Assembly (NCBI GenBank): GCA_963844035.1
Contig: CAWJMT010000035.1
Coordinates: 32,001 to 96,000 of the forward strand
Length of the DNA stretch: 64,000 nucleotides
From: an uncultured Gemmatimonadales bacterium
Lineage (GTDB): Bacteria > Gemmatimonadota > Gemmatimonadetes > Gemmatimonadales > GWC2-71-9
Direction of reading: 5' to 3'
Positions within the stretch are counted from its first letter, which is position 1; the number at the start of each line of letters is the position of its first letter. The notes below the pieces were generated by a model. That model was not told the origin of the DNA. It ran no database searches and was given only the letters and a program-made list of their open reading frames with translations. Positions 33,509-52,823 of the stretch are shown here, in pieces. The translations under genes were made by a program, and so were the position numbers.

Positions 33509-34440
33509 ATGACCGCTCCCGGCCATCAGGATCCCCGCCTCACCGAGCAGCGCAACCCGCGGACCGAGCGCATCGATGTCGCCTCGAGCCTCGAAATCGC
33601 CGACCTGCTCGCGGGCGAAGACGCGCGCGTCGTTCCGGCGGTTCAGCTCGAGCGGGAGCGCGTGGCGCGCGCCATCGATCTTGCGGTCGCGGCGTTTCAG
33701 CGCGGCGGCCGCCTGCTCTACGTCGGAGCGGGGACCTCCGGCCGGCTCGGCGTGCTCGACGCGAGTGAGTGCCCGCCGACGTTCGGGACGCCACCCACGA
33801 TGGTGGTGGGAATCATGGCGGGTGGCCTGCCGGCGCTGGTGCGGAGCATCGAGGGAGCGGAGGACGACGTGAACGCGGCAGACGCCGCGATCGATCAGGC
33901 GGGCGTGGGGAAGGCGGATTTCGTGCTCGGGATCGCGGCCAGCGGCACCACGCCGTTCGTCCGCGCGGCGCTGGGGCGCGCCAAATCGCTCGGCGCCACC
34001 ACCGGCTTGCTGTCCTGCACCGATCCGCCGCGCCAGCTCGCCGAAGCTTGCGACGTGGTGATTCTCCCCAAGGTGGGCCCGGAAGCCGTGACCGGATCGA
34101 CGCGCATGAAAGCCGGCACCGCCACCAAGCTCGTCCTCAACGCCATCACGACCGGCGCCATGATTCGGCTCGGCAAGGTGTACGGCAATCTGATGGTGGA
34201 CGTGATGGCCACGAGCGACAAGCTGCGCGACCGTGGTGAACGGATCGTGATGGAGTGCGCCGGCGCGGATCGGGCGCGCGCCCGCGCCGCGATCGACGCG
34301 GCCGGCGGGAGCGTGAAGGTCGCGATCGTCATGGTGCGGCTGAGCCTGAGCCGCGACGAGGGCGTCCGCACGCTCGAGTCCGCGGGGGGGAGCATGCGCC
34401 GCGCGATCGGTGATCCACCTCCCGTCGGTCGGGCAAGTGA
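33509..34440 (+). CDS. murQ: N-acetylmuramic acid 6-phosphate etherase (stop lost through an indel at the 3' end)
   Basis: TEQRNP, GAGTSGRLGVLDASECPPTF, EGAED, GPEAVTGSTRMKAGTATK, NLMVDV. Confidence 0.95.
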
Positions 34441-35561
34441 CCACCACACTCGCCGTCGGGATCATGTCGGGCACGTCGCTCGACGGCGTGTCGACGGCGC
34501 TCGTGAAGGTGACGGAGTCGCCGCCCGGTGCGGAGCTCGTGGCATTCCGCGTCGAGCCTTACGCCGCCGCGGAGCGCGCGCAGATGATCGACGTCATGGC
34601 GCGCGGCAGCGCGCGGGACCTGGCGCTGTTGCACGTCGCGCTGGGCGAGCGCTTCGCCGGGGCCGTGCTGCAGCTGCTCGCCACGGCGGGGGTCGCGCCG
34701 CGCGACCTGTCCTTCGTCGCGTCGCACGGGCAGACCGTGTGGCACGAGCCGGGGCGCGCCACGCTGCAGCTGGGCGACCCCGCCGTGCTGGCGGAGCGCC
34801 TCGGCGTGCGGGTGGTGAGCGATTTTCGTGCGCGCGATGTGGCGGCGGGGGGCCAGGGGGCTCCCCTCGTGCCGCTCGCCGACGTGCTGCTGTTCGGGCA
34901 CCCCGCGCACGGGCGGCTGCTGCTCAACCTCGGCGGCATCGCCAACGTCACCTGGGTGGCGCGGCGCGGCGAGATCGCGGGCGCCGTGGCATTCGACACC
35001 GGACCGGGCGTGGGCGTGATCGACGCCGTAGTACGGCGGTTCACGCCCGACGCACCGTTCGATCGCGACGGTGAGCGCGCTCGTCGCGGGCAGCCGATCT
35101 CGTCCGTATTGGACCAGCTGCTTGCCGATGCGTATTTCGCCGCGCCTCCTCCCAAGAGCACCGGGCGTGAGCGCTTCAGCCCGGCGTACGCGGAGCAGTC
35201 TGATCGAGCTGGTGCGAGCGGCGGGCGGCTCCGAGAACGACGCCGTCGCGACGGCCACGGTGCTGACCGCCGAGGCCGTGGCCCGGGCGATCACGCGGTG
35301 GACCCCGGCGGGCGCCGGGGAGGAGCTGGTGATCTCGGGCGGCGGCGCGCGCAATCCCGCGTTGGTCGAGCAGCTCGCCGCGCGCGTGCATCCCCGGCCC
35401 GTGGTGCTGTTCGACGCGCTGTTCTTCGATGGCGAAGCGAAGGAGGCTCTGGTCTTTGCGTTCCTCGGATCATCTCACGCTCGACCAACCGGCCCGGGAA
35501 TCTCCCCGCCGCGACGGGCGCCCGCGGCCCGCGCGTGTTGGGGCACGTCACCCCGGCGTGA
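34437..35561 (+). CDS. anmK: Anhydro-N-acetylmuramic acid kinase (compensating indels)
   Basis: GIMSGTSLDG, SHGQT, DFRARDVAAGGQGAPL, NLGGIAN, FDTGPG, PPKSTGRE, GGGARN, KEAL. Confidence 0.95.
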   Translation: MTTTLAVGIMSGTSLDGVSTALVKVTESPPGAELVAFRVEPYAAAERAQMIDVMARGSARDLALLHVALGERFAGAVLQLLATAGVAPRDLSFVASHGQTVWHEPGRATLQLGDPAVLAERLGVRVVSDFRARDVAAGGQGAPLVPLADVLLFGHPAHGRLLLNLGGIANVTWVARRGEIAGAVAFDTGPGVGVIDAVVRRFTPDAPFDRDGERARRGQPISSVLDQLLADAYFAAPPPKSTGRERFSPAYAEQSDRAGASGGRLRERRRRDGHGADRRGRGPGDHAVDPGGRRGGAGDLGRRRAQSRVGRAARRARASPARGAVRRAVLRWRSEGGSGLCVPRIISRSTNRPGNLPAATGARGPRVLGHVTPA

Positions 35562-37011
35562 GTGCAACGCTTGCGCGGCTGGTGTTTCCGTCGCTCCGAT
35601 TCAGACCGGCGACGGCGGCGGGTTCGCGCATGAGCGCGCCAAGATCGATGCGGCCCTCAAGGCCGGCGTCGGGGGATTCATCCTGTTCGGCGGCGACCGC
35701 GCAAGCATCACGACGCTCACGACGAACCTGCGCGCGGCCGCCGGGCGCCCACTGCTGATCGGCGCCGACCTGGAGCGCGGGCCCAGGCAGCAGGTCGAGG
35801 GACTCACCGAGCTGCCGCCCCCCGCCGCGCTCGGATGGCTGGCGGACCTGACCGACGACCAACACGGCGGGCATGATCACCGCGGTGCGAGGCCCGGTCG
35901 GTCGGCATCACGTGGGCGTTTGCCCCGGTGTGCGATCTCGACAATGAGCCGAAGAACCCGATCGTCCAGACGCGCTCCTTCGGCGTCGATCCGGCGCTCG
36001 TGGGCGAGCACGCGGCAGCGTGGATCCGTGGCTGCCAGGAGCACGGCGTGCTCGCGTGCGCCAAGCACTATCCGGGACACGGGCGGACCACGCAGGACTC
36101 CCATGCGACGCTGCCGCGGGTGACGACGGCGATGGCGGAGCTCGAGCAGACCGATCTGGTCCCGTTCGCGGCGGCGGTGCGCGCCGGGGTCGGCAGCGTG
36201 ATGAGCGCGTTCGTCGCGTATCCGGGCTGGGACCCGAGCGGCAGTGCCGCGGGCTACTCGCCGAGTGATGCTCGACTACCTGCGGGACACGCTTGGCTTC
36301 CAGGGCATCGTGGTCACCGACGCGCTGATCATGGCGGGAGCGACCGCGCGCCAGGCCGAGGCGCCCGCCACGGCGAGCGCGGTAGCGGCGGGGTGCGATG
36401 CGCTGTTGTATCCGGCGGACTTCGCAGGCGTAGTCGCGGAGCTCGACCGCGCCGTGGGCGGTGTGATCTCCGTCGCCCGGGCCGACGCCGCGCTGGCGCG
36501 CTACCAGCACGCGGTGGATACGTGGAGTCAGGGCCCCGAGCAGGGCGAGCCGGACCTGGCGGCGCACGCCGACTACGCCGATCGGCTCGCCACGCGGGTG
36601 ACGCACATGGTGCGGGGCGATGCGCCGGCGCATCGCGCCGCCGTTATCGTGTCGATCGTGGACGACGATGTGGGTGGGCCGTACAAGGTCGGGCCGCGGG
36701 ACGTCTTCCACGCACACCTTGCGCGAGGCGGGGGTAGCAATCGCAGCGGGCAACGGGGAACGGGCAGACGGGGAACGGGTATCGTGCTCGTCTACGCCGA
36801 GCCGCGGTCGTGGAAGGGGCGGGCCGACCTGGGTCCGCGCTCGCTCTCGGCCCTGAAGACGCTCGCACCGAAGGCCGCCCTCATTATTCTGTTCGGCCAT
36901 CCGCGTCTCGCGGCGCAGATTCCGGGCAAGGCGCCGGTGGTGTGCTGCTGGCATGGGCAGCCGTTGATGCAGCGCGCGGCGGCGAGGTGGGTCAAAGACA
37001 AGACCAAGTAA
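35558..37011 (+). CDS. nagZ: Beta-N-acetylhexosaminidase, GH3 (multiple indels)
   Basis: LLIGADLERG, NPIVQTRSFG, KHYPGHGRTTQDSH, VTDALIM. Confidence 0.9.
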
Positions 37012-37070
37012 GAGGGACGGGGGACGAGGGAGGGGTAGCACCCGTCCCCCGTCCCCCCTCCCTCGTCCCC
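37012..37070. repeat. Inverted heptamer repeats forming a hairpin between convergent genes
   Basis: agagggacgggggacgagggagggg ... cccgtcccccgtcccccctccctcgtcccc. Confidence 0.7.
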
Positions 37071-38509
37071 TACCGCATCACTCCGAGTTGTCTCAGGTAT
37101 GCTGAAACGGTCCGTCCCGGCACCGCAAAAATGATCTTGCCCTGAGACTCCCGGTTCCCGCCGTACAGCATCGCGACCACGCGACCGTCGCGGTCGAAGA
37201 TTGGACTGCCTGAGGATCCCGGCGCCCCGTAGCCATCCACCTGCACGAGGGTACTCAGCACCTTGCTCACCGTCCCCACCGTCAGCGTGGGATCGGCGAC
37301 GGTGGTGCGGTCCTGGCTTTCCATCGGCAGGTCCTCGCCGAGCGGATAGCCGATGATCGCGACCGGGTCGCCGCGCTGCGGATCTTGTGCGGCGGCGGCG
37401 AATCCCACGACGCGCGGCGTGCCGCCGCGGATGTCCACCTTGAAGACGCCGACATCGGCGCTGTCGGACACGCCGAGCAGGCGTCCCTGGAACCACTGCT
37501 TGCTCCCCGAAAACTTGACGGCGATGCCGAGCGGCGCGCGGCCGCCCGCTTCGCCCACGAGCACATGCTTGTTGGTGACCATCGTGCCCTGAGAGTCCAC
37601 CGAAAACGCCGTGCCGCTGAACACCTCGGTCGCGGAGAACTTGACCAGCACCAGGGCCACGGCGTCGGTATTGCGACGCGCGATCCCACGGAAGTCCACG
37701 CGCGAGGCGTCGGCGAGTCCTCGCTGGCGCAGTTCGGCGGAGTCGAGCTGGGAGCGGAGCAGCGCCACCGTGGCGGGGTCACCGCTCGTTCCCAGCGCGG
37801 CAAGGGCGCCGCGCAGCCGTCCCGTCTCAGCCTGCGAGGCGCGCAGCGCGGTGCGCATGCTTTGCATTTCGGTTTGGACGCTGGACAGGAGCAGCTGCGC
37901 CGCCCGACTCAGGGAATCGGCGCGCGCTTGCAGCGCGGCGAGCTCACCAGCGTGGCGGGCGTTGTTCCATTGCATCCACCCGAAGGCGCCGACGCTCACT
38001 AAGAGGAGGGCGAGGAGCGTCTTGGTGGTGCGGCGGAGCCCCTGCGTCTGGCGCTCGACTTCCGCGGCGATGCGCACGCCGGTGCTGCTGGGCGCGGGCG
38101 GAGTGCGGGGCGGGGCGGACACCGCGCGGAACTGGTCCCGTGGAGACGACATCCGCCCGGCGGAATCGCGCGCGGCGGCTGACGAATCGGCGGCGCCGGC
38201 ATCGAGGACGTGAAACTCGAGCGACGGGCCGTGAGTGCCGAGCGCGATGACGTCGCCGTCGCGCACCGGCGCATCGCCCGTGACCGCGATCCCGTTGACG
38301 AACGTGCCGTTGGTGCTGCCGAGGTCGCGTACGATGAAGGCGTCACCCTGGCGGATGATCGCGGCGTGTTGGGAAGAGACATCGAGGTCGCCCGCCGGAT
38401 CGAACCGCAGATCCGACAGGGGATTCCGGCCCAGCGCGACGTAGCCTTTCTGGAATGTCTCAACCTGTCCGGCGCGTGTGCCGGACAGGATCTTGATTCG
38501 AGCCTTCAC
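37070..38509 (-). CDS. FHA-TM-coiled-coil-trypsin-like serine protease
   Basis: FHA (LGR, SSQH, STNGT), TM helix, triad TNKHV / ADVG / GSSGSP. Confidence 0.9.
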   Translation of the reverse strand: MKARIKILSGTRAGQVETFQKGYVALGRNPLSDLRFDPAGDLDVSSQHAAIIRQGDAFIVRDLGSTNGTFVNGIAVTGDAPVRDGDVIALGTHGPSLEFHVLDAGAADSSAAARDSAGRMSSPRDQFRAVSAPPRTPPAPSSTGVRIAAEVERQTQGLRRTTKTLLALLLVSVGAFGWMQWNNARHAGELAALQARADSLSRAAQLLLSSVQTEMQSMRTALRASQAETGRLRGALAALGTSGDPATVALLRSQLDSAELRQRGLADASRVDFRGIARRNTDAVALVLVKFSATEVFSGTAFSVDSQGTMVTNKHVLVGEAGGRAPLGIAVKFSGSKQWFQGRLLGVSDSADVGVFKVDIRGGTPRVVGFAAAAQDPQRGDPVAIIGYPLGEDLPMESQDRTTVADPTLTVGTVSKVLSTLVQVDGYGAPGSSGSPIFDRDGRVVAMLYGGNRESQGKIIFAVPGRTVSAYLRQLGVMR

Positions 38510-39537
38510 GGGCGCTGGCCGACGAGGTACAGCCCCAGGCCCACCAGCGTCGCCGCGATCGCCAACAGGAGCAACGCGCGCCAGCGCGTGCGCCTCGCCC
38601 GCACCGGCGGCGGGCTGCCGGTGTAGACGGGAACGGGCTCGGTGGCCGTGTCCGTGTCGATGAGCGGGTACACCTGATGCCCGGGCGTGTCTCCCGGGTC
38701 AGCGGCACGCAGCCCCTCACCCTCGAAGCGCGCGACGATCACCGTGATGTTGTCCGGGCCCCCGCGCTCGTTCGCGAGCGCGATGAGACGATCGCATGCG
38801 CCCGGCAGGTCGTGCCCGCCGCCCACGATCGCGCTGATTTCCTCCTTCTTTACCTGGCCCGTGAGGCCGTCGGAGCAGAGGACGAGCACGTCGCCGTTCC
38901 GCAGCTCCTGATGCGTCAGGTCCACCTTCACTTTGGGATCGGGGCCGAGCGCCTGGAGAATGATGTTGCGGCGTTCGCTGTGCGCCGCCTCCTCCTCGGT
39001 GAGCTCGCCGGCCTCGACCAGGCGCTGCATCAGCGACTGATCCTTGGTGAGCTGGAATGCCGTCCCGTTGCGTACCAGATAGGCGCGGCTGTCCCCGACC
39101 TGCGTGAGGAATACCTGGTCGCCGAGTACGCCGACGGCGGTCGTGGTCGTCCCCATCCCGCGCATTTCAGGGTGCGCGATCGCATACGAATGAATGTGCC
39201 GGTTCGCCGCCTCGACCGCCTCGCGCAGCCGGTACGCAAACCGCTGCGATGTGGGCTCCGGCTCCTCGCCCCAGGCCGTGACCAGGTGATTGTAGATCGT
39301 ATCGGTGGCCATCTCGCTGGCGATCTCTCCCGCCGCCGCGCCCCCCATCCCGTCGGCCACCACGAGCAATGAGCCGTACCCACCCACCTCGTGCTCTCGT
39401 ACCTCGGGCAGCAGCGAAGCCTGCCGCCGCGAGAGATCGGCAACGAGAAAGTGATCTTCGTTGTGATCGCGCGAGCGGCCCACGTCCGTCTTGGCGAACA
39501 CGTGAATCTGGGTGGGCTTGGAGACGCGTCCGAACAT
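38506..39537 (-). CDS. PP2C-type Ser/Thr phosphatase with C-terminal TM
   Basis: TDVGRSRDHNED, VADGMGG, MGTT, VGDSRAY, LCSDGL, GGPDNIT. Confidence 0.95.
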   Translation of the reverse strand: MFGRVSKPTQIHVFAKTDVGRSRDHNEDHFLVADLSRRQASLLPEVREHEVGGYGSLLVVADGMGGAAAGEIASEMATDTIYNHLVTAWGEEPEPTSQRFAYRLREAVEAANRHIHSYAIAHPEMRGMGTTTTAVGVLGDQVFLTQVGDSRAYLVRNGTAFQLTKDQSLMQRLVEAGELTEEEAAHSERRNIILQALGPDPKVKVDLTHQELRNGDVLVLCSDGLTGQVKKEEISAIVGGGHDLPGACDRLIALANERGGPDNITVIVARFEGEGLRAADPGDTPGHQVYPLIDTDTATEPVPVYTGSPPPVRARRTRWRALLLLAIAATLVGLGLYLVGQRP

Positions 39538-39539
39538 GG

Positions 39540-41043
39540 CTATGGCTCGCAGAGGGAGTGCACGAGGGCGGGATAGGATCGGACCCCGGCGTCGAGACCG
39601 GCGGCCCGTCGCGCCCATTGGCACCCCTGCGCGCGATCGTCGAGCTTGGCGTAGGCATTCGCGACCAGGTACGCCGCCAGGGCGCGATCGGTGGCGGCCA
39701 CGCCGGGCGTGTCATAGGCCGCCCGCGCCGAGTCCCGCAGGGTCGCACCGTCCAGGACATCGATACGATCGAACAGGTCGTTCAGCCGCGTCGCGACCGG
39801 GACCGCCGGCTTGGGTGGCACTGGCGTCGCGGTGCCCGCCGACCGGGCGGGCGGATTCGACGGGGCTTCGCTTGTGGGTGACGTCTGCGGAGTGGTGGTC
39901 GTGGATGTGCGGCGTGGCGTCGCGCCGGGCCCACAGGGCGTACGCGCCGCCGGCGCCGATCAAGACGATGGCGCCGAGCGCCATCGGCAGGGCCGAACGT
40001 CGCTTGGCGGGCGCGGGCCGGGCGGAGGGAGTAAGGATCTGCGTCTTCCCGTCCGCGTCGGCGCGCGTGGCCGGCACCGCCGCCGCCGCCCCGCGCCCCA
40101 GTCCCGCGACGGCGGCCACGTCGCTCGCGAACTTGGCGGCTGACTGATACCGCTCGGTGGGGTCACGAGCCAGTGCCACGTCCAAGGTCGCCTGGAGGCC
40201 GGCGGGATAGGTGATGGTTGGACGCGCCGCCGCGAGTGTGAGCGGATCGTCGGTGAGCCGTTTGATCATCGTCTCCTGTATCGTGCTCGCTTCGAACGGC
40301 AGTTTGCCCGTCAGCATCTTGTACAGCACGAGCGCCAGCGAGTAGATGTCCGAGCGGCCGTCGACCTTGTCACCCGCGAGCTGCTCCGGGCTCATGAATT
40401 CCGGCGTCCCAACCACAAGTCCCGTCTTGGTCACCTTCTGGGAGTCGTCGCCGCCGATCGCCTTGGCGATCCCGAAATCCACGACCTTCACCACGTCCGT
40501 CCCGTTCCGTCCCCGGGCCAGCATGATATTGTCGGGTTTCAGGTCCCGGTGCACGATGCCAAGGTCGTGGGCGGCCTGAAGCGCGTCGGCCACCTGGGCA
40601 AAAATCTGTACCGCGCGCCCGGTGGGGAGCGACTCGTCGCGCTTGAGGAGATCGGTGAGGGGCTCGCCCTCGACGAACTCCATGGCGAGATAGATCAGGC
40701 CGTCGCTCGTCTCCCCGAAATCGTAGATCGCAGCCACGTTGGGATGGGTGATGCGGCTCGCGTTGGCGGCCTCGCGGTTGAAGCGCGCCACGGCGTCGGG
40801 GTCGTGCACCATCGACGGGTTCATCACCTTGATCGCGCTGCGCCGGCCCATCTTGACGTGCTCGGCGAGATACACCTGACCCATCCCTCCCTCGCCCAGC
40901 TTTCTCGTCACATGGTAGCGGTCGGCGATCACCTGGTCGACCAGGTCGCTCGCGGGGGAAGCCGCGCGCAGCGTCTGCCCGTCGTTCGGACAGAACTTCA
41001 CGTCGTCCGCGTACTCCGTGTTGCACACCGGGCAGACCTTCAT
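39540..41043 (-). CDS. Zinc-ribbon Hanks-type Ser/Thr kinase with TM (indel near 39850)
   Basis: CPVC..FCPNDG, GEGGMGQV, HRDLKPDN, DFG, GTPEFMSPE. Confidence 0.95.
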
Positions 41044-41940
41044 GAGGCGGCCGCCAGCTCCACACGCAGCAGCTTGTCGCCCAGGAGGATCCGGGAACGA
41101 TGTTGCAGCGTCATGTCGCCGCGGGCGGCGATCGCCACGCCGTTGCGGCTGCCGGCGTCGATCACCACAAAATCGGCGTCCTCCGACCGGATGGTGGCGT
41201 GCGCCGCGCTCATGGATGGATCGTACGGAAACAACCACTCGCCCCGCTCGCGGCCGATCTGGATGTCCCGGCCGGGGGAAAGCTGCACCACGTCCCGCGA
41301 GCTCCCGTCGGAGCGGAGCTGGGTCAAGCTGGCGATGTCGGCGCTCGGGATCAGGCTCCCCATGCGCTTCGTGGCATCGACATCGGGTGCGGTGGGTCCC
41401 GGATAGCCGAGGCGCCGGAACCGGACCACCTGCGATCCGATCAGCACCAGATCACCGTCCACCAGCCGGTAGGGCGCTTCGAGAAACACCCACGTTCCAT
41501 TCCGGCTCCCCAGGTCGCGCACGACCAGCTGGTCGCGCTCCCAGGAGAGCTTGGCGTGCAGGGGAGAGAGAAACGGATCGTCGGGAAACCGCAGGTCGCC
41601 CTCCTGGCGCCCGATGGCGACTTCGGGACCGGGACGCTCGAACCGCTCCAGGGGATTGCCGGTCTCATCGAGCAGGACGAGGCCGATGGCGCTGCCGGTG
41701 GGACGGCCGGGGCCGTGCCGAGTCCGACTCGGTGAGACGGCGCCCGCAGTGCGGACAAAAGGGGAGCCGTCCCGGGGTCCAGCGGTTGCAGAATGGACAG
41801 GTGTTGCCGTCGGGCGCAGGAGCGGCCCCGGTGGTGGCGGCGATTTTCACGGCCACGGCCGAGCCGAGGGGCTTTCCGCAATCCATGCAGAACCTGGCGC
41901 CCGCGTCGTTGCCGCGGCCGCAGTACGTGCACACCGTCAA
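41040..41940 (-). CDS. Double zinc-ribbon plus two FHA domain protein (indels)
   Basis: CTYC/CMDC/CPFC/CPHC; FHA1 IGR..SPLH..SRNGT, FHA2 IGR..SAAH..SRNG. Confidence 0.88.
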
Positions 41941-42033
41941 GGCAGAATGTGCTCCACAGGGCGCCTGAGTTACGGTCTGCCAATCTATTGGTCTAGTTGG
42001 CGGGTCGAAAGGCCCAATGCTAGCTTGCGCGCC

Positions 42034-44808
42034 GTGCGCATCGCGTCGAGGCTGTCGTGCTCGGTCGTGTGCCTCGCGCTCGCCACCAGCGCGCAGGCAC
42101 AGGTGGATCCGTCCGCCGGGTGGCGCACGCTGCACACGCCCCACTTTCGCATTCACTTCCGTCCCGAGACCCGTGCCGTCGCGCCGCGGGCCGCCCGGGA
42201 AGCGGAGCGCGCGTATGGGCTGCTCGCGCGCGAGCTGCATCCCCCGCGCGGGATCATCGACATCACCCTGTCCGATGATGCCGACGCGGCGAATGCCTTG
42301 ACCACCGTGTTTCCCTCCAATCGCATCACGCTGTACGTCGCTCCGCCGGCGAGCGACCCGGACCTCCAGAACTACGATTCATGGCTGCGGGTCGTCACCA
42401 CGCACGAGCTGACCCACGTCTTCCATCTCGACCGGGCGCGGGGGTTTTGGGGGTCGCTGCAACACGTGTTCGGTCGCGGCCCGCTGCTGTTTCCCAACGA
42501 GTACCAGCCGACCTGGGTGATCGAAGGCCTTGCGACCTACTATGAGTCGGCGCTGACCAATGCGGGACGGGTCAAGGGGACCCTGCACACCCAGGTGCTC
42601 GCTGCCGGGGCGCTGGGGGGCACGGCGCGATCGCCGTGGAATGCGCTGTTCTTCAGCCGCTGGCCCGGGGGCGTCGCGCCATACGCCTACGGCAGCCGGT
42701 TCTTTCGCTACCTCGCCGACTCGCTGGGCGACTCGATCGTCCCGCGCTTCGTCGAAGGGACCGCGGGACAGCTGATTCCGTTCCGCGTGGGCCGCCCGCT
42801 CTCGCGCGTCACGCCGAGCGTCAGGCTCGACGCGGCGTGGCCCCGCGGGACACAACCGGCGGCGGCGCCGGCCGACTCGAGCGGCGCCGAGCGAATCGAC
42901 CGCGGCCTGTTCACCGAGCCGGTCCCGCGCGTGTCGCCCGATCGGCGTCGCCTGGCGTATGTGCGGGACGACGGCAAGGGCAGGCGCTCCCTCTACATCG
43001 TCTCGACCGAAGACTGGCGCCGCGTGCGAACCCACGACGTGACCGGCGGCGTGAGCTACGACTGGCTCGGCGACACGCTGATCGTATCGCAGCTCGACTA
43101 CACGTCGCGCTGGCTGCTGCGCAGTGATCTCTATCGCTGGCTGCCCGACGGGCGCTGGACGCGCACCACCCGCGGCGCGCGGTTGCAGCAGCCGCGCGCC
43201 GGTGGTGACCGCCTTTCGACCATCGAGCTGGTGCCGGGGGGCAATCGTCCGACGCTGCTTGGGGACGACAGCGCCGACACGCGAGACGTCGGCGCGACCT
43301 GGGGGGACGTCGTCCCTTCGCCCGACGGCCGTTCGGTGGCCGCCACCCGCCACGCCGACGGGCACTGGTCGCTGGTGCGCTGGCCGGCGGAGGCTCCGGA
43401 GCAACGCGAGCTGCTGTTCGCCTCTCGCAGCGTTGTGAGCGACGTCGCATGGACTCCGAACGGGGAGCTGTTGTTCGTGAGCGACCAGTCGGGGTATCCC
43501 CAGATCTACCGCTGGTCCGCGTCGGGCGCGCCGGTGGCGCTCACGGCGGAGCCCCTCGGAGCCCGAGCGCCCGCCATGCTCGCGGATAGCACGCTGCTGT
43601 ACACGACGGTCGCCGCGTCCGGGTGGGAGCTGCGCCACGCACGCCCCGACTCAGGCGTAGCGGCTCCACCGCTGGTGGAACCGCTGCCGTTCGATTCCGC
43701 GCCGGCAACCGCGCTGCGCGAAACCGGCTACGCGCTTGGGTCATCGTTGCGGCCGCATTTCTGGCTCCCCCTGGTGCTCGATCGTGGATCGGCAGGAACG
43801 TTCTTCGGAGTCGCGACCGGCGGCACCGACGCGGTCGAACGTTACACCTACGCGGTGGCGGCATTGGCATCGGCGTCCCCGGGACGGATGGTGGCGGCGT
43901 TCGACGGCGTGTCGCACCTGTTCGGCAATCCGTCCCTCGACGTGTCGTTGACTTCCGACTGGGCGCCGGTAGCATCCCCCGATACCAGCGCGTCGCAGCG
44001 CGAGAGCGACGCGGCGTTGGGGGTGACCTTCGTCGCGCGGCGCTGGGAAACGACCGCGAGTCTGCGGGTCGCAGCCGAGTATGAGGCGACGCATTTCGCA
44101 GCCTGCGCGGGCGGGTGCGTGGACCAATCGCTGCTCGGCGCGTCCATCACGCTGGCGGTGCGCTCCTTCACGTTCGGCGCGGTGGCGATTTCACCGGAAG
44201 ACGGGGTGCGGCTGTCGGCGACGTATCGCCGCTGGGACGAGCGGGGCACCGATCGGTGGTCGAGCGAGCTCCGTCCCGAGATCGCGGTCTACGCACCCTT
44301 GCCGCTCAAGAAGGGCTTCGCGCACCAGGTATTGGCCCTGCGGGTGGCGGCGGGGGCGCTGTCCGGGTCGTTGCCGCGCGTGTTCAACGTGGGCGGCGTG
44401 TCGTCGGGGGGGGTCGCCTTGGCGCTCGGGCAGTCGCTGGGCCAGACGCGGGACTTCCCCGTGCGGGGCTACGCCGAAGGAGAACTGTGGGGCGACCGCG
44501 CGATCGTCACGTCGGTTGAGTATCGCGTACCCCTCGCGCTCATCGGCCAGCTCATCGGCCATCTCCCGATCGGCAGCGACAAGGTGTCGCTCTCGCTGTT
44601 CGCCGATGCAGGGAGTGGGTGGACCGATGGCAACGCCGCGCAGCTGGCGCGGCTGCGCTCGGTGGGCGCCGAGCTGGTGGGCGACATGACGATCAGCTAC
44701 GACGCACCGCTGCGGTTGCGCCTGGGGGTGGCCAAGCCGCTCGCTCCCCCGCCGTCCGGTCTCCCGCAGGACCCCGTGGTTTATGTTGCACTGAGCTCCA
44801 GCTTCTGA
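42034..44808 (+). CDS. Exported metallopeptidase (HExxH) + TolB-like propeller + Omp85/BamA-like barrel
   Basis: Signal peptide AQA/Q, HELTH...WVIEGLATYYES, SPDG/WTPNG repeats, VRGY motif, VEYRVPL, C-terminal Phe. Confidence 0.8.
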   Translation: MRIASRLSCSVVCLALATSAQAQVDPSAGWRTLHTPHFRIHFRPETRAVAPRAAREAERAYGLLARELHPPRGIIDITLSDDADAANALTTVFPSNRITLYVAPPASDPDLQNYDSWLRVVTTHELTHVFHLDRARGFWGSLQHVFGRGPLLFPNEYQPTWVIEGLATYYESALTNAGRVKGTLHTQVLAAGALGGTARSPWNALFFSRWPGGVAPYAYGSRFFRYLADSLGDSIVPRFVEGTAGQLIPFRVGRPLSRVTPSVRLDAAWPRGTQPAAAPADSSGAERIDRGLFTEPVPRVSPDRRRLAYVRDDGKGRRSLYIVSTEDWRRVRTHDVTGGVSYDWLGDTLIVSQLDYTSRWLLRSDLYRWLPDGRWTRTTRGARLQQPRAGGDRLSTIELVPGGNRPTLLGDDSADTRDVGATWGDVVPSPDGRSVAATRHADGHWSLVRWPAEAPEQRELLFASRSVVSDVAWTPNGELLFVSDQSGYPQIYRWSASGAPVALTAEPLGARAPAMLADSTLLYTTVAASGWELRHARPDSGVAAPPLVEPLPFDSAPATALRETGYALGSSLRPHFWLPLVLDRGSAGTFFGVATGGTDAVERYTYAVAALASASPGRMVAAFDGVSHLFGNPSLDVSLTSDWAPVASPDTSASQRESDAALGVTFVARRWETTASLRVAAEYEATHFAACAGGCVDQSLLGASITLAVRSFTFGAVAISPEDGVRLSATYRRWDERGTDRWSSELRPEIAVYAPLPLKKGFAHQVLALRVAAGALSGSLPRVFNVGGVSSGGVALALGQSLGQTRDFPVRGYAEGELWGDRAIVTSVEYRVPLALIGQLIGHLPIGSDKVSLSLFADAGSGWTDGNAAQLARLRSVGAELVGDMTISYDAPLRLRLGVAKPLAPPPSGLPQDPVVYVALSSSF

Positions 44809-44841
44809 GTAGGTATCAAGAGGCGAACAAACGAGAACAGC

Positions 44842-47097
44842 GTGAAACGATCGGTCCTCCTATTCGGTGGCTTGCTGGCCTTCGCGCCCGGCAGCGCGCT
44901 GGTCGCGCAAGATCCCGCCGACCGGGTTGGCCTGGAGCGGTTACGGGATTCGCTCGCCCGCAGTGCGGACAGCACGGCGATCAAGCAGCTGGAAGCGGCC
45001 ACGATTGACGTGGCGAAGCAGCACCGCGACGACCCCCTCATTCACCTGCGTCTGGGATTCATCGCCTACCGGCTCGGCGAGGTGGCTGGAAAATCCCATT
45101 TCGAGGACGCGGCGGGGGAGTTCGAGTGGGCCGCGGAGCTGCGGCCCGGGTGGCCCTACCCCTGGTATGGCGCCGGCCTTTCCGAGCTTGCGGTCGGCGA
45201 GCACTCCGTCATCGGTGTCGAGAATGTCCGGCAGGCGCTGCGCAAGGACCACTTGTCGAAAGCCGCGCGGGCGTTCGCGAAAGCGGCTGAAGCAGACCCG
45301 GCATTTGCCGAGGCGACGGTGGACCTCGCCCGCGCGGCCCTCGTCCAGCGTATTGGGGCGCGGCTCGATCTCGCCTTGAGCGCCGTCCGCGCGGCAGCGC
45401 ACTCCGCGGCGGGCCGGGACCCGCGCATCCAGCTGGCGCGGGGCCGCGTCGAGCGAGCGGTGGGCAACAGCGATTCGGCCCTTGCGGCCTTTCAAGTCTA
45501 TCTGGCGGTCGGCGGCGACTCGGGCGTCGGTCTCATCGAGCAGGCGCGAACCCTGTACTCCGCGCACCAGCCGGCAGCCGCCCTGCACGCCTACTTCGCG
45601 GGGGCGCGCACCAGCACCGCGGCTGCCGCCGCCCTGTATCGGTTCGACATCGGCTGGATCGCTTCGCCAGCCGGCCTCGCGGCCTTCGATGCGCTCGACA
45701 ACGGGCCCGCCCGTGCCAAGTGGCTGGCGGATTTCTGGCAGCGGCGCGACGTCGCCGAGGCACGCGAGCCGGGCGACCGGCTGACGGAGCACTACCGCCG
45801 CTGGTTCTATGCCGAGCGCAATTTCCTGCTGGTCAGCCGCCATCGCGAGTACGACATCACCGAGCGCTATCGCAATCCCCAGGGCGAGATCGACGATCGT
45901 GGGGTCATCTATGTCCGGCACGGCGTCCCGGACGCCCGAGCGATCTGGGTCAGCTCGGACTCGGTGGAGCCGAACGAGACCTGGCTCTATCACCAGACGG
46001 AGGGCGATCTGATCTTTCACTTTGTCGCGCGCAAAGGAGTGCAGGACTACAAGCTGGTGGAGAGCCTGGCCGATGCGCTGGTAACGGGACAGCGAGCAGC
46101 AATGGCCCTCGAGGCACGGCGCCAGTTGAGCCCCGTGGCCATCGGTCTCTTCGCGTCGCGCGCCGGTCTGAGCCCCCTGTATGTGCGCCTGAGCGACCCG
46201 GTCGGCTCCGCCAGCATGCGCGGGGTGCTCGCGTCGGAACGCAAGCTCGGACAGCGCAGCATCGAGATCGGCACCGCGAGCGACAGCTACCGCCATGCGT
46301 TCGCGTCGCCGCTCGACGTGATCGTGTCCCGTTTCGTGGCAGGGGATCCGCGCAACGGCGGCGGGGCGCTGCACATCGTGTTCGCGATTCCGGCGCAGCG
46401 GCTCGAGCCGGTGCCCGACAGCAATCGCGTCGTGTATCCCCTCGCATTCCGTCTCTACGTGACTGACCGCACCGGAGAGATCGCAGCCCGGCTGGACACG
46501 ATGCGCGTCTTTGCCGCGTCCAAGCCGCTCCCCGACGGGAGCTACCTCACCGGGAGGTTTGCCGTCCCGATCCCCCCGGGCCTGTATGCCTACCGGCTGC
46601 TGACGGAGCAGCGCAGCGGTGGGGCAGGCACGATCGCGATGGGCGACTCGGTGTTCGTGGACACGCTCACCGGCAACCGCTTTGCCATCAGCGATCTCGT
46701 GGTCGGTCGCGCCGGCTCCGGTCTCGTGTGGAGCGCCGGGTCCGACACGGTGCTCCTCAACCCGCTCGATCGGTTCCCCGAGGGCGGCACGGCCGCGCTG
46801 TACTACGAGGTCTACGGGGTGCCGCCGGGCGCCCTGTACCACACCGAGATCCGGTTGGAGCGCCGCGGTGGGCGGTCGGCGTTCGGCGCGGTGTCGCGGC
46901 TGTTCGGCGGAGGAAAACGCCAGCCGGTGTTGCTCGAGTTCGATGCCCCGAGCAGCGGGCGCGTGAACCGGGTGCACCGCCAGGTGGATTTGCGCGACGC
47001 GCCGCGCGGGTCGTACTCCATCATCCTGCGCATCAGCGATCCGGCGACCGGCAGGGCGCTGACCCGGAGCGTGGGGTTCACCGTCGTTTCGCGCTAA
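44842..47097 (+). CDS. TPR + GWxTD-domain exported protein
   Basis: Signal peptide, TPR-like helices, FWQRRD..EHYRR, DDRGVIYVRHGVPD, NETWLY, C-terminal Ig-like domains. Confidence 0.8.
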   Translation: MKRSVLLFGGLLAFAPGSALVAQDPADRVGLERLRDSLARSADSTAIKQLEAATIDVAKQHRDDPLIHLRLGFIAYRLGEVAGKSHFEDAAGEFEWAAELRPGWPYPWYGAGLSELAVGEHSVIGVENVRQALRKDHLSKAARAFAKAAEADPAFAEATVDLARAALVQRIGARLDLALSAVRAAAHSAAGRDPRIQLARGRVERAVGNSDSALAAFQVYLAVGGDSGVGLIEQARTLYSAHQPAAALHAYFAGARTSTAAAAALYRFDIGWIASPAGLAAFDALDNGPARAKWLADFWQRRDVAEAREPGDRLTEHYRRWFYAERNFLLVSRHREYDITERYRNPQGEIDDRGVIYVRHGVPDARAIWVSSDSVEPNETWLYHQTEGDLIFHFVARKGVQDYKLVESLADALVTGQRAAMALEARRQLSPVAIGLFASRAGLSPLYVRLSDPVGSASMRGVLASERKLGQRSIEIGTASDSYRHAFASPLDVIVSRFVAGDPRNGGGALHIVFAIPAQRLEPVPDSNRVVYPLAFRLYVTDRTGEIAARLDTMRVFAASKPLPDGSYLTGRFAVPIPPGLYAYRLLTEQRSGGAGTIAMGDSVFVDTLTGNRFAISDLVVGRAGSGLVWSAGSDTVLLNPLDRFPEGGTAALYYEVYGVPPGALYHTEIRLERRGGRSAFGAVSRLFGGGKRQPVLLEFDAPSSGRVNRVHRQVDLRDAPRGSYSIILRISDPATGRALTRSVGFTVVSR

Positions 47098-47102
47098 TCC
47101 GT

Positions 47103-47131
47103 TTGCACTTCATCGCGGCCGCCGGTAGCTT
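47103..47131 (+). promoter_or_regulatory. sigma70-type promoter upstream of kinase
   Basis: TTGCAC-17bp-TAGCTT. Confidence 0.5.
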
Positions 47132-47154
47132 TCGCTGATTCCTCCGGAGTAGGG

Positions 47155-49030
47155 ATGTATTGTTCCCGCTGTGGTACCCAAAACGAAGACACCAGCAGGT
47201 TCTGCCGGTCGTGCGGTCTCGACCTGGCGGCGACGCCGCTTAAGGGTGAGCCGGAAGTCAGCGAAATCGACATGGTGCGCCGGGAGCTCAAAGGGGAGTA
47301 CGACATCCTCGAGGAGCTGGGCCGCGGCGGCATGGCGATTGTGTTCAAGGCCCGCGAGCGCCAGCTCGAGCGCGACGTGGCGATCAAGGTGCTCCCGTTC
47401 TCCCTCGCCTTCGACAAGGAATTCGTAGAGCGCTTCGAGCGGGAGGCGCGGACGTCGGCGAAGCTCGAGCACCCGAACATCATTCCGATCTATCGCGTCG
47501 GCAAATCGGGACGCGTCACCTACTTCGTCATGAAGTACCTGCGCGGCCAGCCCCTGTCGGCCCTGCTCGCCGCGCGCGGGTCGCTCCCCCCCGGCGAGAT
47601 CCGCCAGATTCTGGCGCAGGTCGGCCGCGCCCTCGCCTACGCCCACAAGAGCGGCATCGTCCACCGGGACATCAAGCCGGACAACATCATGTTCGACGAG
47701 CACGGCTTGGCGCTGGTGACCGATTTCGGCATCGCCAAAGCCGCCACCGGCGGCAAGCTCACGGGCACGGGAATGTCCATCGGGACGCCCCACTACATGA
47801 GTCCGGAGCAGGCGCGCGCTCAGGGCCTGGACGGACGCAGCGACCTGTATTCGTTGGGCGTGGTCGCCTATCAGTGCCTCATAGGATCGGTCCCCTACGA
47901 CGGCGAGGACTCGTTCTCCATCGGCTACAAGCACATCATGGAGGACATGCCGACCCCACCGCTCCATACGCCGGAGCAACGGGACCTGTTTGAAATCATC
48001 AAGAAGATGATGGCGAAGGCCCCCGACGACCGGTTCCAGAGCGCCGAGGAGCTGGGGAAAGTCCTGGAGGGGGCGGGCGCCTTCACGAGTGTGACCCTCG
48101 CCAGCACGCCCACCCGTCCCATGCCGTCCCACAACATGGCGAGTGCACTTACGACACCGCTGCCGCGCGCGACGGGGGTGCGCCCGGCGCCGGCAACGGC
48201 AACGGCGCCGGCGCCGGCGTCGGTGCCCGCGGCCAAGGCCAAGCACTCGGTCGCGGGAACGATGTTTCTGTGGCTGGTCATTGTGGGCACCGCCGTGGGT
48301 GGAGGCGGGTTCTACGCCTACAAACAGGGGTGGCTGCTCGCCTCCGCGCCTCCGGTCAAGCCGGACACGGCGGGACTGCCCCCCGTCACTCCTATTCAGG
48401 CGTCCGAGTCGACCGCGCACGCGGATAGCGCGGCCGCGCCTCACCCCGGCGGCCGACACCGCCGCTCCCCGCCTACCGCCTCCGGGGACACCAGGAAAGC
48501 TCACGCTGCAGGGGATGCCGCAGGGGGCCCGGGCCACGCTCAATGGGCAGGTCGTGAAGGGAAATTCGTTCGAGGTGCCGCCCGGGGTGCACAAGCTGGC
48601 CGTGCGGGCGCCCGGGTACGACACGTTTGAGCGGCAGGTCGTGATCACGCCGGGCCAGCCCAGCACCGTCAAGGTCGACATGCAGCTCGCCGGCGGGGGG
48701 ACGGGTGGGGCGGGCCCCTGCGAGCAGTACGGGCCGGCCTACAACCAGGACAACCTGTGCTTCGATTCGCGGCCGGTCCCGCTGGCATCGACGCTGCTGC
48801 CGATCCCGGTCGACGCGCCCGTCGTCCCGCGCGAGGCGATTCTCCTGTTCCACGTCTCCCTCACCGGCGAAACCATGGCGGTACGCCTGTTCGTCCGCTC
48901 GAACGTCGAAACCTTCAACGATCAGGCGCTCGACCTCGCCAAGGGGTTGCGCTGGAATCCCGCGCAAAAGAACGGTGAGCCGGTCGATGCCTGGGTCCAG
49001 TGGCCCTTCAAGCCGGTCCCCGCGAGGTAA
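47155..49030 (+). CDS. Zinc-ribbon Ser/Thr kinase-TM-PEGA-TonB C-terminal-like protein (indel near 48430-48450)
   Basis: CSRC..CRSC, HRDIKPDN, DFG, SPEQ; TM; GVHKLAVRAPGY (PEGA); FNDQAL..RWNPAQKNGEPV (TonB_C). Confidence 0.88.
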
Positions 49031-49539
49031 GCATCAACATCCATCCCACGGCGTTCATCGCGCCCGGAGCGGTCGTCCTGGGGGACGTCACCCTCGGGCC
49101 GCGCTCCAGCGTGTGGTACACTGCCGTGCTGCGAGGCGACACGGCGCCGATCGTGGTGGGGGAAGCGTCCAACGTCCAGGACGGGACCATCATTCACGTG
49201 GACGCCGGCGTTCCGGCCACCGTGGGCGCGCGGGTGGGCATTGGGCACCGCGTGGTCCTGCACGGGTGCACGATCGAGGATGAGTGCCTCATCGGCATGG
49301 GGAGCGTGCTGCTGAACGGGGTCCACATCGGCGCGGGCAGCGTCGTGGCGGCCGGTGCGGTCGTGCCGGAAGGGCTGCGGGTGCCACCGGGCTCGGTGCT
49401 GGTGGGCGTCCCGGCTCGGATCACCCGCGCGGTCGACGACGGGCTGCGCGACCGTATCCGGGCCACGTGGGAGCACTATGTGACGGAGGCCACACGGCAC
49501 CGCTCCGGCGCGTTTCCAATCGCGCGAGCAAGTTTGTGA
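49027..49539 (+). CDS. Gamma carbonic anhydrase family (start uncertain)
   Basis: IHPTAFIAP, LRGD, NVQDGTIIH, IGHRVVLHGC, hexapeptide repeats. Confidence 0.92.
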   Translation, partial: VSINIHPTAFIAPGAVVLGDVTLGPRSSVWYTAVLRGDTAPIVVGEASNVQDGTIIHVDAGVPATVGARVGIGHRVVLHGCTIEDECLIGMGSVLLNGVHIGAGSVVAAGAVVPEGLRVPPGSVLVGVPARITRAVDDGLRDRIRATWEHYVTEATRHRSGAFPIARASL

Positions 49540-49703: not shown

Positions 49704-52181
49704 ATGACTGAGTCCACCAATAAGGGGTCGCTCTCGCTTACCCCAAACGCTGTCACGATTCTCGAGAAGCGCTACCTGATCAAGGATGACAAAGGAAAGG
49801 CGGTGGAGCGGCCGGAAGACCTGTTCTGGCGCGTGGCCCGCACGATTGCCGCGCCCGACCAGACCTACGGTGCCTCCCCCCAGGCCCTGAAGGGCCTCGC
49901 CGAGACGTTCTTCGAGCTGATGGCCACCCGCGTCTGGATGCCCAATTCACCCACTCTGATGAATGCCGGTCGGCCGCTCGGGCAGCTCTCCGCGTGCTTC
50001 GTTCTGCCGGTCGACGACGCCCTGTCTAACGGCCAGAGCGGCATTTACGACACCCTGCGCTCCATGGCGCTGGTCCACCAGTCGGGAGGCGGGACGGGCT
50101 TCTCCTTCTCGCGGCTGCGCCCTCAGAATGACGTGGTGCGTTCCACTATGGGCGTCGCCTCCGGCCCGGTGTCGTTCATGAAGCTGTACGATGCCTCGAC
50201 CGACGTGGTGAAGCAGGGCGGCACCCGCCGCGGCGCCAACATGGGCATCCTGCGGGTGGACCACCCCGACATCCTGGAGTTCATCACCTGCAAGGACGAT
50301 TTGACCCAGGTGACGAACTTCAACATCTCGGTCGCGGTCACCGACGCGTTCATGGCCGCCGTGGAGCAGGGGACGAGCTACGACCTGATCCATCCCCGTA
50401 CCGGCCAGCCGGTGGGGCAGCTCGAGGCGCGCGACGTGTTTCAGAAGATCGTGCACGGCGCCTGGAAGACCGGCGAGCCGGGGGTGTTCTTCATCGACCG
50501 CGCCAACGCCTACAATCCCGTCCCGCATCTCGGCAGCTACGAGGCGACCAACCCCTGTGGCGAGCAGCCGCTGCTGCCCTACGACGTGTGCAACCTGGGC
50601 TCGATCGACGTCGGACGGTGCGTCAAGGACGGCGCGGTGGACTGGGAGCGCCTGGCGACCGTCACGCACCTGTGCACGCACTTTCTCGACAACGTCATCG
50701 ACGCCAACCGGTACCCGCTGCCTGAGATCGACAAGCTCGCCAAGCACATCCGCCGGATCGGGCTCGGCATCATGGGTTGGGCCGACCTGCTGGTGCGGCT
50801 CGGCATTCCGTACAACTCGGACGAAGGGGTGGATCTCGGCCGCAAGCTGATGCAGTTCGTGGACGAGGAGTCGAAGAAGGCATCGGAGAAGCTCGCGGAG
50901 CAGCGCGGCGTGTTCGGCGAGTGGGAGCGGTCGATCTGGGGACCCGATGCCACCTGCGCCCGCGACGCCAAGGGCGAGCGCATCCGGCCGATGCGCCGGC
51001 TGCGGAACTGCAACCTGACGACGGTCGCGCCCACCGGCACGATTTCGATCATCGCGGGCTGCTCGTCGGGGATCGAGCCCCTGTTCGCCGTGGCGTTCAT
51101 GCGGAACCAGGCGGGCGTCCAGATGCCGGACGTGAACGAGGACTTCGTCGCCATCGCGCGGCGCGAGGGGTGGTACTCCGACGAGCTGGTGCAGCGGATC
51201 GCCGAGACGGGCCATATCCATTTCCCCGAGGTGCCGGAGAAGTGGCAGCGGGTCTTCGTGACTGCGCACGACGTGACCCCCGAGTGGCACATCCGGATGC
51301 AGGCGGCGTTCCAGGAGTACACCGATTCGGCGATCTCCAAGACCTGCAACTTCCCCCGGGAGGCGACGGAAGCGGACGTGGAGCAGATCTACCGCTTTGC
51401 CTTCAAGCAGCGCTGCAAAGGCGTGACGGTGTACCGCGACGCGTCGCGTGAGAACCAGGTGCTGTCCACCGGCGCCACCACCAAGAAGGCCAGTGAGGCG
51501 GTGCCCGATCAGGCACAGCGCCAGCTCGCCGAGGCGCTGGGACGGATCGCCGAGCTCGACGCCGAGCTGGCGCGCACACGCGCGGCCTTGCACGGCGTTG
51601 AGGCGGAGAATCAGCAGCGCCGGGCCAAACGCTCGCGCCCCGACCTCCTGAAGGGCTCCACGCGGCGGGTCGAGACCCCCCTCGGCACGATGTATGTGAC
51701 CATCACCGAGGACGAGAGGGGCCAGCCGTTCGAGATGTTCATCACGCTCGGGAAGGCAGGGCACGCGTTGATGGCCGACGTCGAGGCGATCGGCCGGCTC
51801 ATCTCGCTGGCGCTGCGCTCCGGGATCTCCTTGAAGGAGCTCTACCGCCAGCTCCGCGGCATCTCGAGCGACAAGACGATCGGGCTCGGCCTGCAGAAAG
51901 TCTCCTCGGTGCCCGACGCGATCGGCATCGCGATCGAAAAGTGGATGCAGGAGCGACAGGGGATCCAGCAGGATCTCCTCGGCGACCCCGGAGCCCAGCA
52001 GCCGACGGCGCTGCGCGAGGTGGTGACGGGGGTGTCGGGAGCGGGGGAGGGGGAGCTCTCGGTCCACGGTCATGACATGAACCAGGAGTTCCTCGGCGCC
52101 TGCCCGGATTGTGGATCGCAGCTCGCCTTCGTCGAGGGCTGCGCCAAGTGCCACGTGTGCGGCTACTCGGAGTGCGGTTGA
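49704..52181 (+). CDS. nrdJ: Class II (B12-dependent) ribonucleotide reductase with TSCPD C-terminal region
   Basis: PNSPTLMNAG, SACFVL, TNPCGEQPL, APTGTIS, SVPDAIG, CPDC..EGCAKCHVCGYSEC. Confidence 0.95.
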   Translation: MTESTNKGSLSLTPNAVTILEKRYLIKDDKGKAVERPEDLFWRVARTIAAPDQTYGASPQALKGLAETFFELMATRVWMPNSPTLMNAGRPLGQLSACFVLPVDDALSNGQSGIYDTLRSMALVHQSGGGTGFSFSRLRPQNDVVRSTMGVASGPVSFMKLYDASTDVVKQGGTRRGANMGILRVDHPDILEFITCKDDLTQVTNFNISVAVTDAFMAAVEQGTSYDLIHPRTGQPVGQLEARDVFQKIVHGAWKTGEPGVFFIDRANAYNPVPHLGSYEATNPCGEQPLLPYDVCNLGSIDVGRCVKDGAVDWERLATVTHLCTHFLDNVIDANRYPLPEIDKLAKHIRRIGLGIMGWADLLVRLGIPYNSDEGVDLGRKLMQFVDEESKKASEKLAEQRGVFGEWERSIWGPDATCARDAKGERIRPMRRLRNCNLTTVAPTGTISIIAGCSSGIEPLFAVAFMRNQAGVQMPDVNEDFVAIARREGWYSDELVQRIAETGHIHFPEVPEKWQRVFVTAHDVTPEWHIRMQAAFQEYTDSAISKTCNFPREATEADVEQIYRFAFKQRCKGVTVYRDASRENQVLSTGATTKKASEAVPDQAQRQLAEALGRIAELDAELARTRAALHGVEAENQQRRAKRSRPDLLKGSTRRVETPLGTMYVTITEDERGQPFEMFITLGKAGHALMADVEAIGRLISLALRSGISLKELYRQLRGISSDKTIGLGLQKVSSVPDAIGIAIEKWMQERQGIQQDLLGDPGAQQPTALREVVTGVSGAGEGELSVHGHDMNQEFLGACPDCGSQLAFVEGCAKCHVCGYSECG

Positions 52182-52294
52182 GCGGCACACCGGACACCGG
52201 CGCTCGCCCGGAAATGACGGATCAGGATCGCCCCCACACCCTGGGTGTGACCTCGGTCACGACGTCTTCAGTTGCCCCCGATTATTTTGAAGAC

Positions 52295-52684: not shown

Positions 52685-52685
52685 A

Positions 52686-52786
52686 AGCGGGGAAGAGGGA
52701 AGGGGGAAGGGGGGAAGAGTGGCGACGCCGCTCTTCCCCCTTTCGCTTTACCCTTCCCTCTTCCCCCCTCTCCGTCCCTCGTCCCC
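52686..52786. repeat. Inverted GGGGAAG-type heptamer tracts (purine arm / pyrimidine arm)
   Basis: ggggaagagggaagggggaaggggggaagag ... ctcttccccc...cccttccctcttcccccctctccgtccctcgtcccc. Confidence 0.7.
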
Positions 52787-52823
52787 ATCGCTGGCAAAAG
52801 TGCTATGATGTGTCCTCGCATCC

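Follow-up and report, generated by a model that had tools for sequence, protein, structure and literature searches.

The DNA analysed here is a stretch of 64,000 nucleotides from an uncultured Gemmatimonadales bacterium (assembly GCA_963844035.1, contig CAWJMT010000035.1, positions 32,001 to 96,000; hereafter the window), part of contig C35 of a genome that is 84% complete. It carries two divergent gene arms. The left arm encodes an adaptor with two FHA domains (A), a Hanks kinase (K1), a PP2C phosphatase and a protein that joins an FHA domain to a trypsin-like protease (FHA-protease); the right arm encodes an Omp85 barrel protein, a GWxTD protein and a second kinase (K2) that ends in a TonB_C domain. 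This arrangement is probably a mosaic, in which a self-contained operon of kinase, PP2C, FHA and FHA-protease genes has been placed inside an older run of murein-recycling and envelope genes. The left arm is supported as a unit. A single machine of seven genes is not supported, because the marker genes are lost separately and the Omp85 gene is found without kinase genes. The left-arm operon is coherent, yet uncharacterised; what this analysis adds is a control for synteny, the older order of the genes and the placing of the Omp85 protein in a subfamily.

The left-arm operon

Pfam and NCBIfam profile scans of the window proteins found all seven genes and their domains where a preliminary description, made from the sequence, had placed them (Table 1), and its inventory of two kinases, a PP2C, FHA readers and two extracytoplasmic proteases was right. 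The left-arm genes overlap or abut, as it had said: the junctions A/K1, K1/PP2C and PP2C/FHA-protease measure -4, +2 and -4 bp in the window, and the median gaps across 55-63 loci of relatives are the same. From these overlaps we infer co-transcription. Intact kinase, PP2C and FHA domains are encoded in one tightly packed unit, as in known Hanks kinase/PP2C/FHA operons. The start codons of the two arms, those of A and the Omp85 gene, have 93 bp between them.

The catalytic residues of the operon are well preserved. K1 retains HRD and DFG in 56/56 orthologues, and the phosphatase matches NCBIfam Stp1_PP2C with 239 bits against a cut-off of 230. In the FHA-protease, the two domains are matched with E-values of 3.9e-16 (FHA) and 1.5e-19 (Trypsin_2), and the catalytic-serine motif G.SG[SG]P is kept in 52 of 54 orthologues; both exceptions sit in loci without K1 and A (A scored at 150 bits). 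A transmembrane (TM) segment passes the threshold in 22/29 orthologues but falls short of it in the window copy. Pfam detects no PDZ domain in this protein, which ends after the protease domain.

Threonine motifs are conserved within linkers that are otherwise variable. The linker between the FHA domains of A reads DATKRMGS in the window and keeps D.T.RMGS in 46/58 orthologues; the juxtamembrane region of K1 reads KTQIL, with a T-q-l-l motif kept among orthologues; the PP2C tail carries TEPV. FHA domains recognise phosphothreonine together with the residue at +3. The conserved motifs in A, K1 and PP2C suggest, at the level of sequence, a circuit built on FHA docking.

Three genes are interrupted in this assembly by a single frame change each, namely A (near 41.71 kb, 41708-41718), K1 (near 39.88 kb) and K2 (~48442), while their orthologues in relatives are uninterrupted open reading frames (ORFs) with complete domain sets. 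Compared with the window, similar soil contigs (short-read, from four runs of one study, the listed pieces being about 88-99% alike) differ by net -4 bases at the K1 break, +107 at A and net -4 at K2, and the frame is restored each time. Since the flanking anmK and nagZ genes are split by frameshifts too, most of the breaks at this locus probably arose during assembly. The gap of 107 bases in A takes out a third zinc ribbon and may be a real deletion.

The operon can be compared with several known systems. With Hanks kinase/PP2C/FHA operons such as M. tuberculosis PknB/PstP and D. radiodurans DRA0331-0334 (the latter as given in the accessible part of bioRxiv 10.64898/2026.01.23.701218) it shares co-transcribed kinase, PP2C and FHA genes (here inferred), a membrane-anchored kinase and phosphatase, and adjoining cell-envelope genes. 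It differs in having N-terminal zinc ribbons and no PASTA, vWA or rodA/pbpA, and in a last gene that joins FHA across the membrane to a trypsin-like protease. PASTA was absent from the Pfam scans and rodA/pbpA from the annotated neighbour clusters, and the PknB-type model NF033483 scores 321 and 326 bits against a cut-off of 450. Kinase/PP2C/FHA operons as such are known; on the locus itself, on a kinase-PEGA-TonB_C fusion and on GWxTD function we found no paper (subscription papers were mostly outside our reach).

A second comparison is with the threonine-phosphorylation pathway of type VI secretion (PpkA, PppA and Fha1, as covered in the part of PMC6213207 available to us), which likewise combines a membrane kinase, a PP2C and an FHA reader in a diderm. 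The left arm could then be a displaced form of this pathway or, given that the kinase domains match PADLOC kinase models, an anti-phage kinase system. However, the predicted output here is a protease, no sheath gene (TssC, PF05943) was found in the 84% complete genome, and the PADLOC matches span the generic kinase domain only. The operon also keeps a fixed place between housekeeping genes across the order, which typical defence islands lack. We regard either origin as very improbable.

The FHA-protease itself resembles HtrA/DegS in its TM-anchored, outward-facing trypsin fold with an intact catalytic motif, although the NCBIfam matches are weak and all below cut-off. Unlike HtrA/DegS it has no PDZ, and the FHA domain on its cytoplasmic side points to regulation from within the cell instead of by periplasmic peptides.

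In the genome as a whole, some 28 kinase-like places were counted, against 2 PP2C genes (gene calling gives 20 ORFs for kinases and 6 that are FHA-like). The PP2C therefore probably has other kinase partners besides K1, in agreement with its retention where kinases have been lost. The identity between K1 and K2 is 39-40%, and each is 46-48% identical to a kinase elsewhere in the genome, so that they are not each other's closest paralogues.

Variants and further related genes were observed in relatives and elsewhere in the genome. In several loci of family f3 (L038-L042, L046, L068, L070) the TM anchor of the PP2C is swapped for a short basic-aromatic end, e.g. KKKWWPF, which is likely an alternative membrane anchor. 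A paralogue with the layout FHA-FHA-TM-trypsin, about 590 aa long, is encoded in several f3 genomes and one of family f2 (L076-L082), at another locus that has no kinase or PP2C matches. Two more sites lie in the window's own genome (G000:C35:211630-212520, C5:126455-128752): a further, distant gene whose peptidase domain is related, and another FHA-FHA-PP2C site.

Linkage of the arms and the older gene order

The preliminary description had joined both arms in one trans-envelope circuit: signals from the Omp85 barrel and the GWxTD protein would pass via the TonB_C domain of K2 to the FHA and PP2C proteins and back out to the trypsin-like protease. Co-occurrence was scored in 150 genomes of the phylum, each at least 90% complete (among them 74 from the window's family, 31 from family f2 and 43 from outside the order); presence counts hinge on the chosen E-value thresholds, and related genomes are not independent. 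A and K2 are both present in 41 of the 150, lying on one contig and no more than 9.2 kb apart in 37 and split over contigs in 4, so the arms are adjacent in every genome scorable on one contig (37/37).

This adjacency has to be read against the background. In a synteny control with 40 evenly spaced 20-kb stretches taken from five relatives, unique best matches were tested for staying within 25 kb in the window's own genome; with pairs that are not independent and one-way orthology, 202/285 pairs 7-12 kb apart (71%) and 290/362 pairs 3-7 kb apart remained linked, and linkage reached one half or more in 18 of the 24 stretches that could be scored. We also compiled gene neighbourhoods from the best 80 of 421 contig matches, those with names being all Gemmatimonadota; in the upstream and downstream tallies of these loci, A can include partial matches (L143). 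Downstream of the Omp85 gene, the 44 loci with at least 5 kb contain the reductase in 40 cases, K2 in 26 and the GWxTD gene in 10. Arm linkage is thus largely the outcome of general gene-order conservation in the order, given the 71% background and a reductase, unrelated to the arms, that is linked more often than K2 or GWxTD. The expected co-occurrence of the arms is borne out as adjacency where both exist, but it lies just modestly above background, and within Gemmatimonadales co-occurrence is weak evidence because gene order is highly conserved there.

The individual genes are distributed unevenly. Within the window's family, A is found in 39 genomes, the FHA-protease in 50, Omp85 in 24, GWxTD in 53 and K2 in 62; the FHA-protease accompanies A in 38 of 39. 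In family f2, A is present in 12 genomes and Omp85 in 25, with K2 and GWxTD orthologues in 0/31 at the threshold used. Outside the order only Omp85 (18) and amidase (8) were found, A and the FHA-protease being absent from all 43 genomes. The left arm is restricted to the order, and GWxTD and K2 are narrower still.

These distributions also bear on the trans-envelope circuit. All five markers occur together in just 10/74 family genomes, Omp85 and GWxTD co-occur below expectation (10 vs 17), and Omp85 is present in 43 sampled genomes without a K2 match (25 from f2, 18 from other orders). From the other orders we retrieved 13 of the 18 Omp85 loci, 12 of them long enough to score, and a kinase, FHA or PP2C gene is present at 0/12. 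As a single route from the outer membrane to the cytoplasm and back, the proposal is not supported by these counts.

The same loci point to an older gene order. In the other orders, murQ or anmK lies upstream of the Omp85 gene on the same strand at 11/12 long loci, two of which also include nagZ, a sodium:solute symporter and an amidase in one run; the reductase lies downstream at 12/12. Among loci with room to tell, an Amidase_3 gene is the first recognised gene upstream of Omp85 in 59/63, and the amidase-Omp85 gap has a median of 11 bp (83 loci). In 6/7 further f2 loci, PP2C alone sits between murQ-anmK-(nagZ) and amidase-Omp85. No amidase orthologue is found in the window's own genome; because one soil contig that spans A to the Omp85 gene also lacks it, this absence is real in the lineage.

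On the mosaic reading, the ancestral order on a single strand would have been murQ-anmK-nagZ-(transporter)-amidase-Omp85-(gCA)-reductase, gCA standing for a gamma-carbonic-anhydrase-like gene. The left arm would have been inserted on the opposite strand between nagZ and the amidase gene in Gemmatimonadales, GWxTD and K2 would later have joined the run downstream of Omp85 in two of the order's three sampled families, and the amidase would subsequently have been lost in the window's lineage.

The surroundings could also be taken to mean that both kinases, the PP2C and the FHA proteins form one network, likely regulating peptidoglycan turnover (amidase, NagZ, AnmK, MurQ) with Omp85 and GWxTD as optional inputs; it would be the Gram-negative equivalent of the cell-wall cluster with PknB, PstP and FHA. 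Across the order, the module does lie with nagZ/anmK on one side and the amidase on the other, and PP2C is present at 47/48 loci among the 80, holding its position even with both kinases gone. The juxtamembrane TT?P[LM]P motif of K2 (33/49 orthologues) resembles the PP2C tail, and K2 is present in all family genomes with A. Yet the 12 f2 genomes with A have no K2 orthologue at the threshold used, PASTA and rodA/pbpA neighbours are missing, and the window's genome keeps the module without an amidase orthologue; the position is, moreover, explained by high background synteny. We consider such a network rather unlikely.

Several observations weigh against the mosaic. The 37/37 linkage of the arms exceeds the 71% average, K2 occurs in 39/39 family genomes with A vs 23/35 without it, and the 24 family genomes with Omp85 have A in 23 and K2 in 24 cases; the linkage and the Omp85 counts also speak for the trans-envelope circuit, which in view of the separate losses we hold to be quite improbable. 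The insertion direction comes from taxonomic nesting, not from a rooted test. In the other orders, the link of Omp85 to murQ is no tighter than that to the reductase (11 vs 12 of 12); the position of the Omp85 gene is for this reason a lead, not proof of cell-wall function. The TEPV tail of PP2C is found at 48/57 loci with A and 2/41 without (98 loci, rows with unreadable A status left out, A threshold 150 bits), an association that loses its significance when relatedness is taken into account (4 independent pairs with support). Finally, the phosphorylation, binding and proteolysis steps set out below are predictions from sequence.

The flanks of the block show further features. The preliminary description closed the cluster at 49030, but the right arm continues there with the gCA gene and, in relatives, has an amidase gene at its head. 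The median gap between K2 and gCA is 17 bp (45 loci), and the two genes are likely on the same transcript. Between murQ/anmK/nagZ and the Omp85 gene, other orders have a membrane protein of 510-575 aa (L123:2810-4507, L126-L132); this upstream cluster was considered as a recycling enzyme and rejected, since it resembles PMT/GT-C glycosyltransferases. The reductase gene is broken or enlarged in some relatives (split ORFs at L065:11759-14344 and L066:14357-16881; 1274 aa at L129:3364-7188), possibly by inteins or introns. At 52109-53186 it is followed by a pair of small paralogues that share an RRGAWYP motif and end in a zinc ribbon; they are conserved in the family and have weak Pfam matches only. 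A G/C-rich inverted repeat at 37013-37069, between the convergent stops of nagZ and the FHA-protease gene, is a possible shared terminator; a promoter/terminator scan gave output at chance level and has no entry for it.

Table 1. Genes of the two arms and of their flanks, in window coordinates
Gene or protein	Position	Strand	Features
Adaptor A	41040..41940	minus	zinc-ribbon (2 here, 3 in same-genus relative)-FHA-FHA
K1	39540..41043	minus	zinc-ribbon Hanks kinase-TM-short outer domain; Pkinase E 2.5e-50
PP2C phosphatase	38506..39537	minus	C-terminal TM anchor, tail motif ATEPVPVY; NCBIfam Stp1_PP2C
FHA-protease	37070..38509	minus	FHA-TM-linker-trypsin-like serine protease; Pfam FHA and Trypsin_2
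Omp85 protein	42034..44808	plus	HExxH..E zinc-peptidase domain, TolB-like propeller, barrel
GWxTD protein	44842..47097	plus	exported TPR-GWxTD, two C-terminal beta-sandwich domains; TIGR04514
K2	47155..49030	plus	zinc-ribbon Hanks kinase-TM-PEGA-cysteine pair (likely disulfide)-TonB_C
gCA hexapeptide protein	49000..49539	plus	gamma-carbonic-anhydrase-like; overlaps K2 end
Ribonucleotide reductase	49704..52181	plus	class II-like with a TSCPD domain; marks the conserved right end of the block
murQ-like SIS protein, anmK, nagZ-like GH3	33509..37011	plus	murein-recycling genes converging on left arm

The Omp85 protein, the GWxTD protein and K2

The AlphaFold2 (AF2) model of the Omp85 protein (predicted local distance difference test, pLDDT, 84; predicted template modelling score, pTM, 0.86) contains a zinc-peptidase-like helical domain, a roughly six-bladed propeller (residues 286-545) and a 16-stranded barrel (residues 578-922), behind a signal peptide judged by eye. 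POTRA domains have no Pfam match and no room in the model. Foldseek returned BamA (8xnb, E 1.5e-8) as best match and also TolB; in a separate search, TolB matches had E-values of about 1e-24. HExxH is kept in 104/105 orthologues, and H124, E125, H128 and E164 are invariant in 22/22; RG[YF], which we take to be the loop-6 motif of Omp85, occurs in 99/105. For the peptidase domain, Atlas look-alikes are named peptidase MA-like (0.94-0.95), Pfam matches stay below cut-off, and no peptidase is among the Foldseek matches listed.

With its 16-stranded barrel, TolB-like propeller without POTRA and N-terminal aminopeptidase-like zinc domain, the modelled protein has the architecture of the WD40-like Omp85 subfamily, to which it is likened by architecture and not by sequence clustering with published members. 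That subfamily is described with a barrel without POTRA, a TolB-like propeller and an N-terminal peptidase-like domain (Heinz and Lithgow 2014, PMC4104836), and Table S3 of that paper gives matches to BamA/TamA, TolB and 'aminopeptidase' for most members. PMC11358297 restates the subfamily, and section 9 of PMC12204202 describes OMP-TolB-like proteins. The accessible parts of these three papers contain no tested function for it, and the coupling to amidase and murQ/anmK seen here in Gemmatimonadota is not found in the published descriptions available to us.

For the GWxTD protein, the domain named in the preliminary description stands (TIGR04514, 35.9 bits against a cut-off of 28), but the literal motif is missing, the window protein reading GEIDDRG. 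Its AF2 model has a pLDDT of 85.5, and Foldseek returned only partial TPR and beta-sandwich matches with template modelling scores by query below 0.2. Tandem GWxTD genes in two to four copies were observed mainly in genomes without an Omp85 match (L066:6923-11369, L067:5510-10005; G064, G115, G127, G170).

The TonB_C domain of K2 scores 26.9 bits against a cut-off of 24.6, and 31-32 bits in two orthologues. Ahead of it, a periplasmic cysteine pair (window 48700-48770) is invariant in 22/22 orthologues and likely forms a disulfide. K2 shares a TM segment, a proline-rich linker and a C-terminal TonB_C with TonB/TolA transducers, from which it differs in its cytoplasmic kinase domain, PEGA and the cysteine pair. 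A partner for such a domain is conceivable under the trans-envelope circuit, since TolB-like propellers pair with TonB_C/TolA-type domains in Tol-Pal according to the accessible part of PMC12204202, which also defines the SHLS motif of motor-coupled TonB/TolA. That circuit is however disfavoured by the K2 TM segments, in which an SHLS-like motor-binding motif is present in 0/49 and a histidine in 4. A predicted complex of the GWxTD protein (residues 22-751) with the PEGA-TonB_C part of K2 scored 0.00 with controls that stayed unfolded, and the result weighs neither way.

A predicted switch and its meaning

For the mosaic, we hypothesize the following course of events. The small outer domain of K1 would act as a sensor, upon which the kinase would phosphorylate two threonines, its own juxtamembrane one and that in the linker of A. 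Both A and the FHA-protease would bind these sites through their FHA domains, which would bring the outward-facing trypsin domains together and activate them; the PP2C, anchored in the membrane and docking via its TEPV tail, would reset the switch. Apart from the kinases, the Omp85 protein may serve in envelope turnover as a periplasmic zinc peptidase anchored in the outer membrane. K2 would be one of the approximately 28 kinases of the cell, with TonB_C as a binding sensor and not a pulling arm.

A tentative extension holds that control of the murein-recycling operon was the reason for the kinase operon's recruitment into it: the TonB_C kinase would sense the state of either the Omp85 zinc peptidase or the GWxTD protein, and the protease, activated by FHA docking, would act on the amidase or its partners. 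We think this improbable at present.

An FHA domain fused across the membrane to a protease would offer a simple route by which cytoplasmic phosphorylation switches on periplasmic proteolysis, and the conserved threonine motifs name candidate residues of this switch. The WD40-like Omp85 subfamily, itself uncharacterised, gains a positional lead through its coupling to a cell-wall amidase. If the operon was recruited to control the wall, this abundant soil phylum would have a cell-wall checkpoint that works inside-out and without PASTA, and the WD40-like Omp85 proteins would gain their first functional context.

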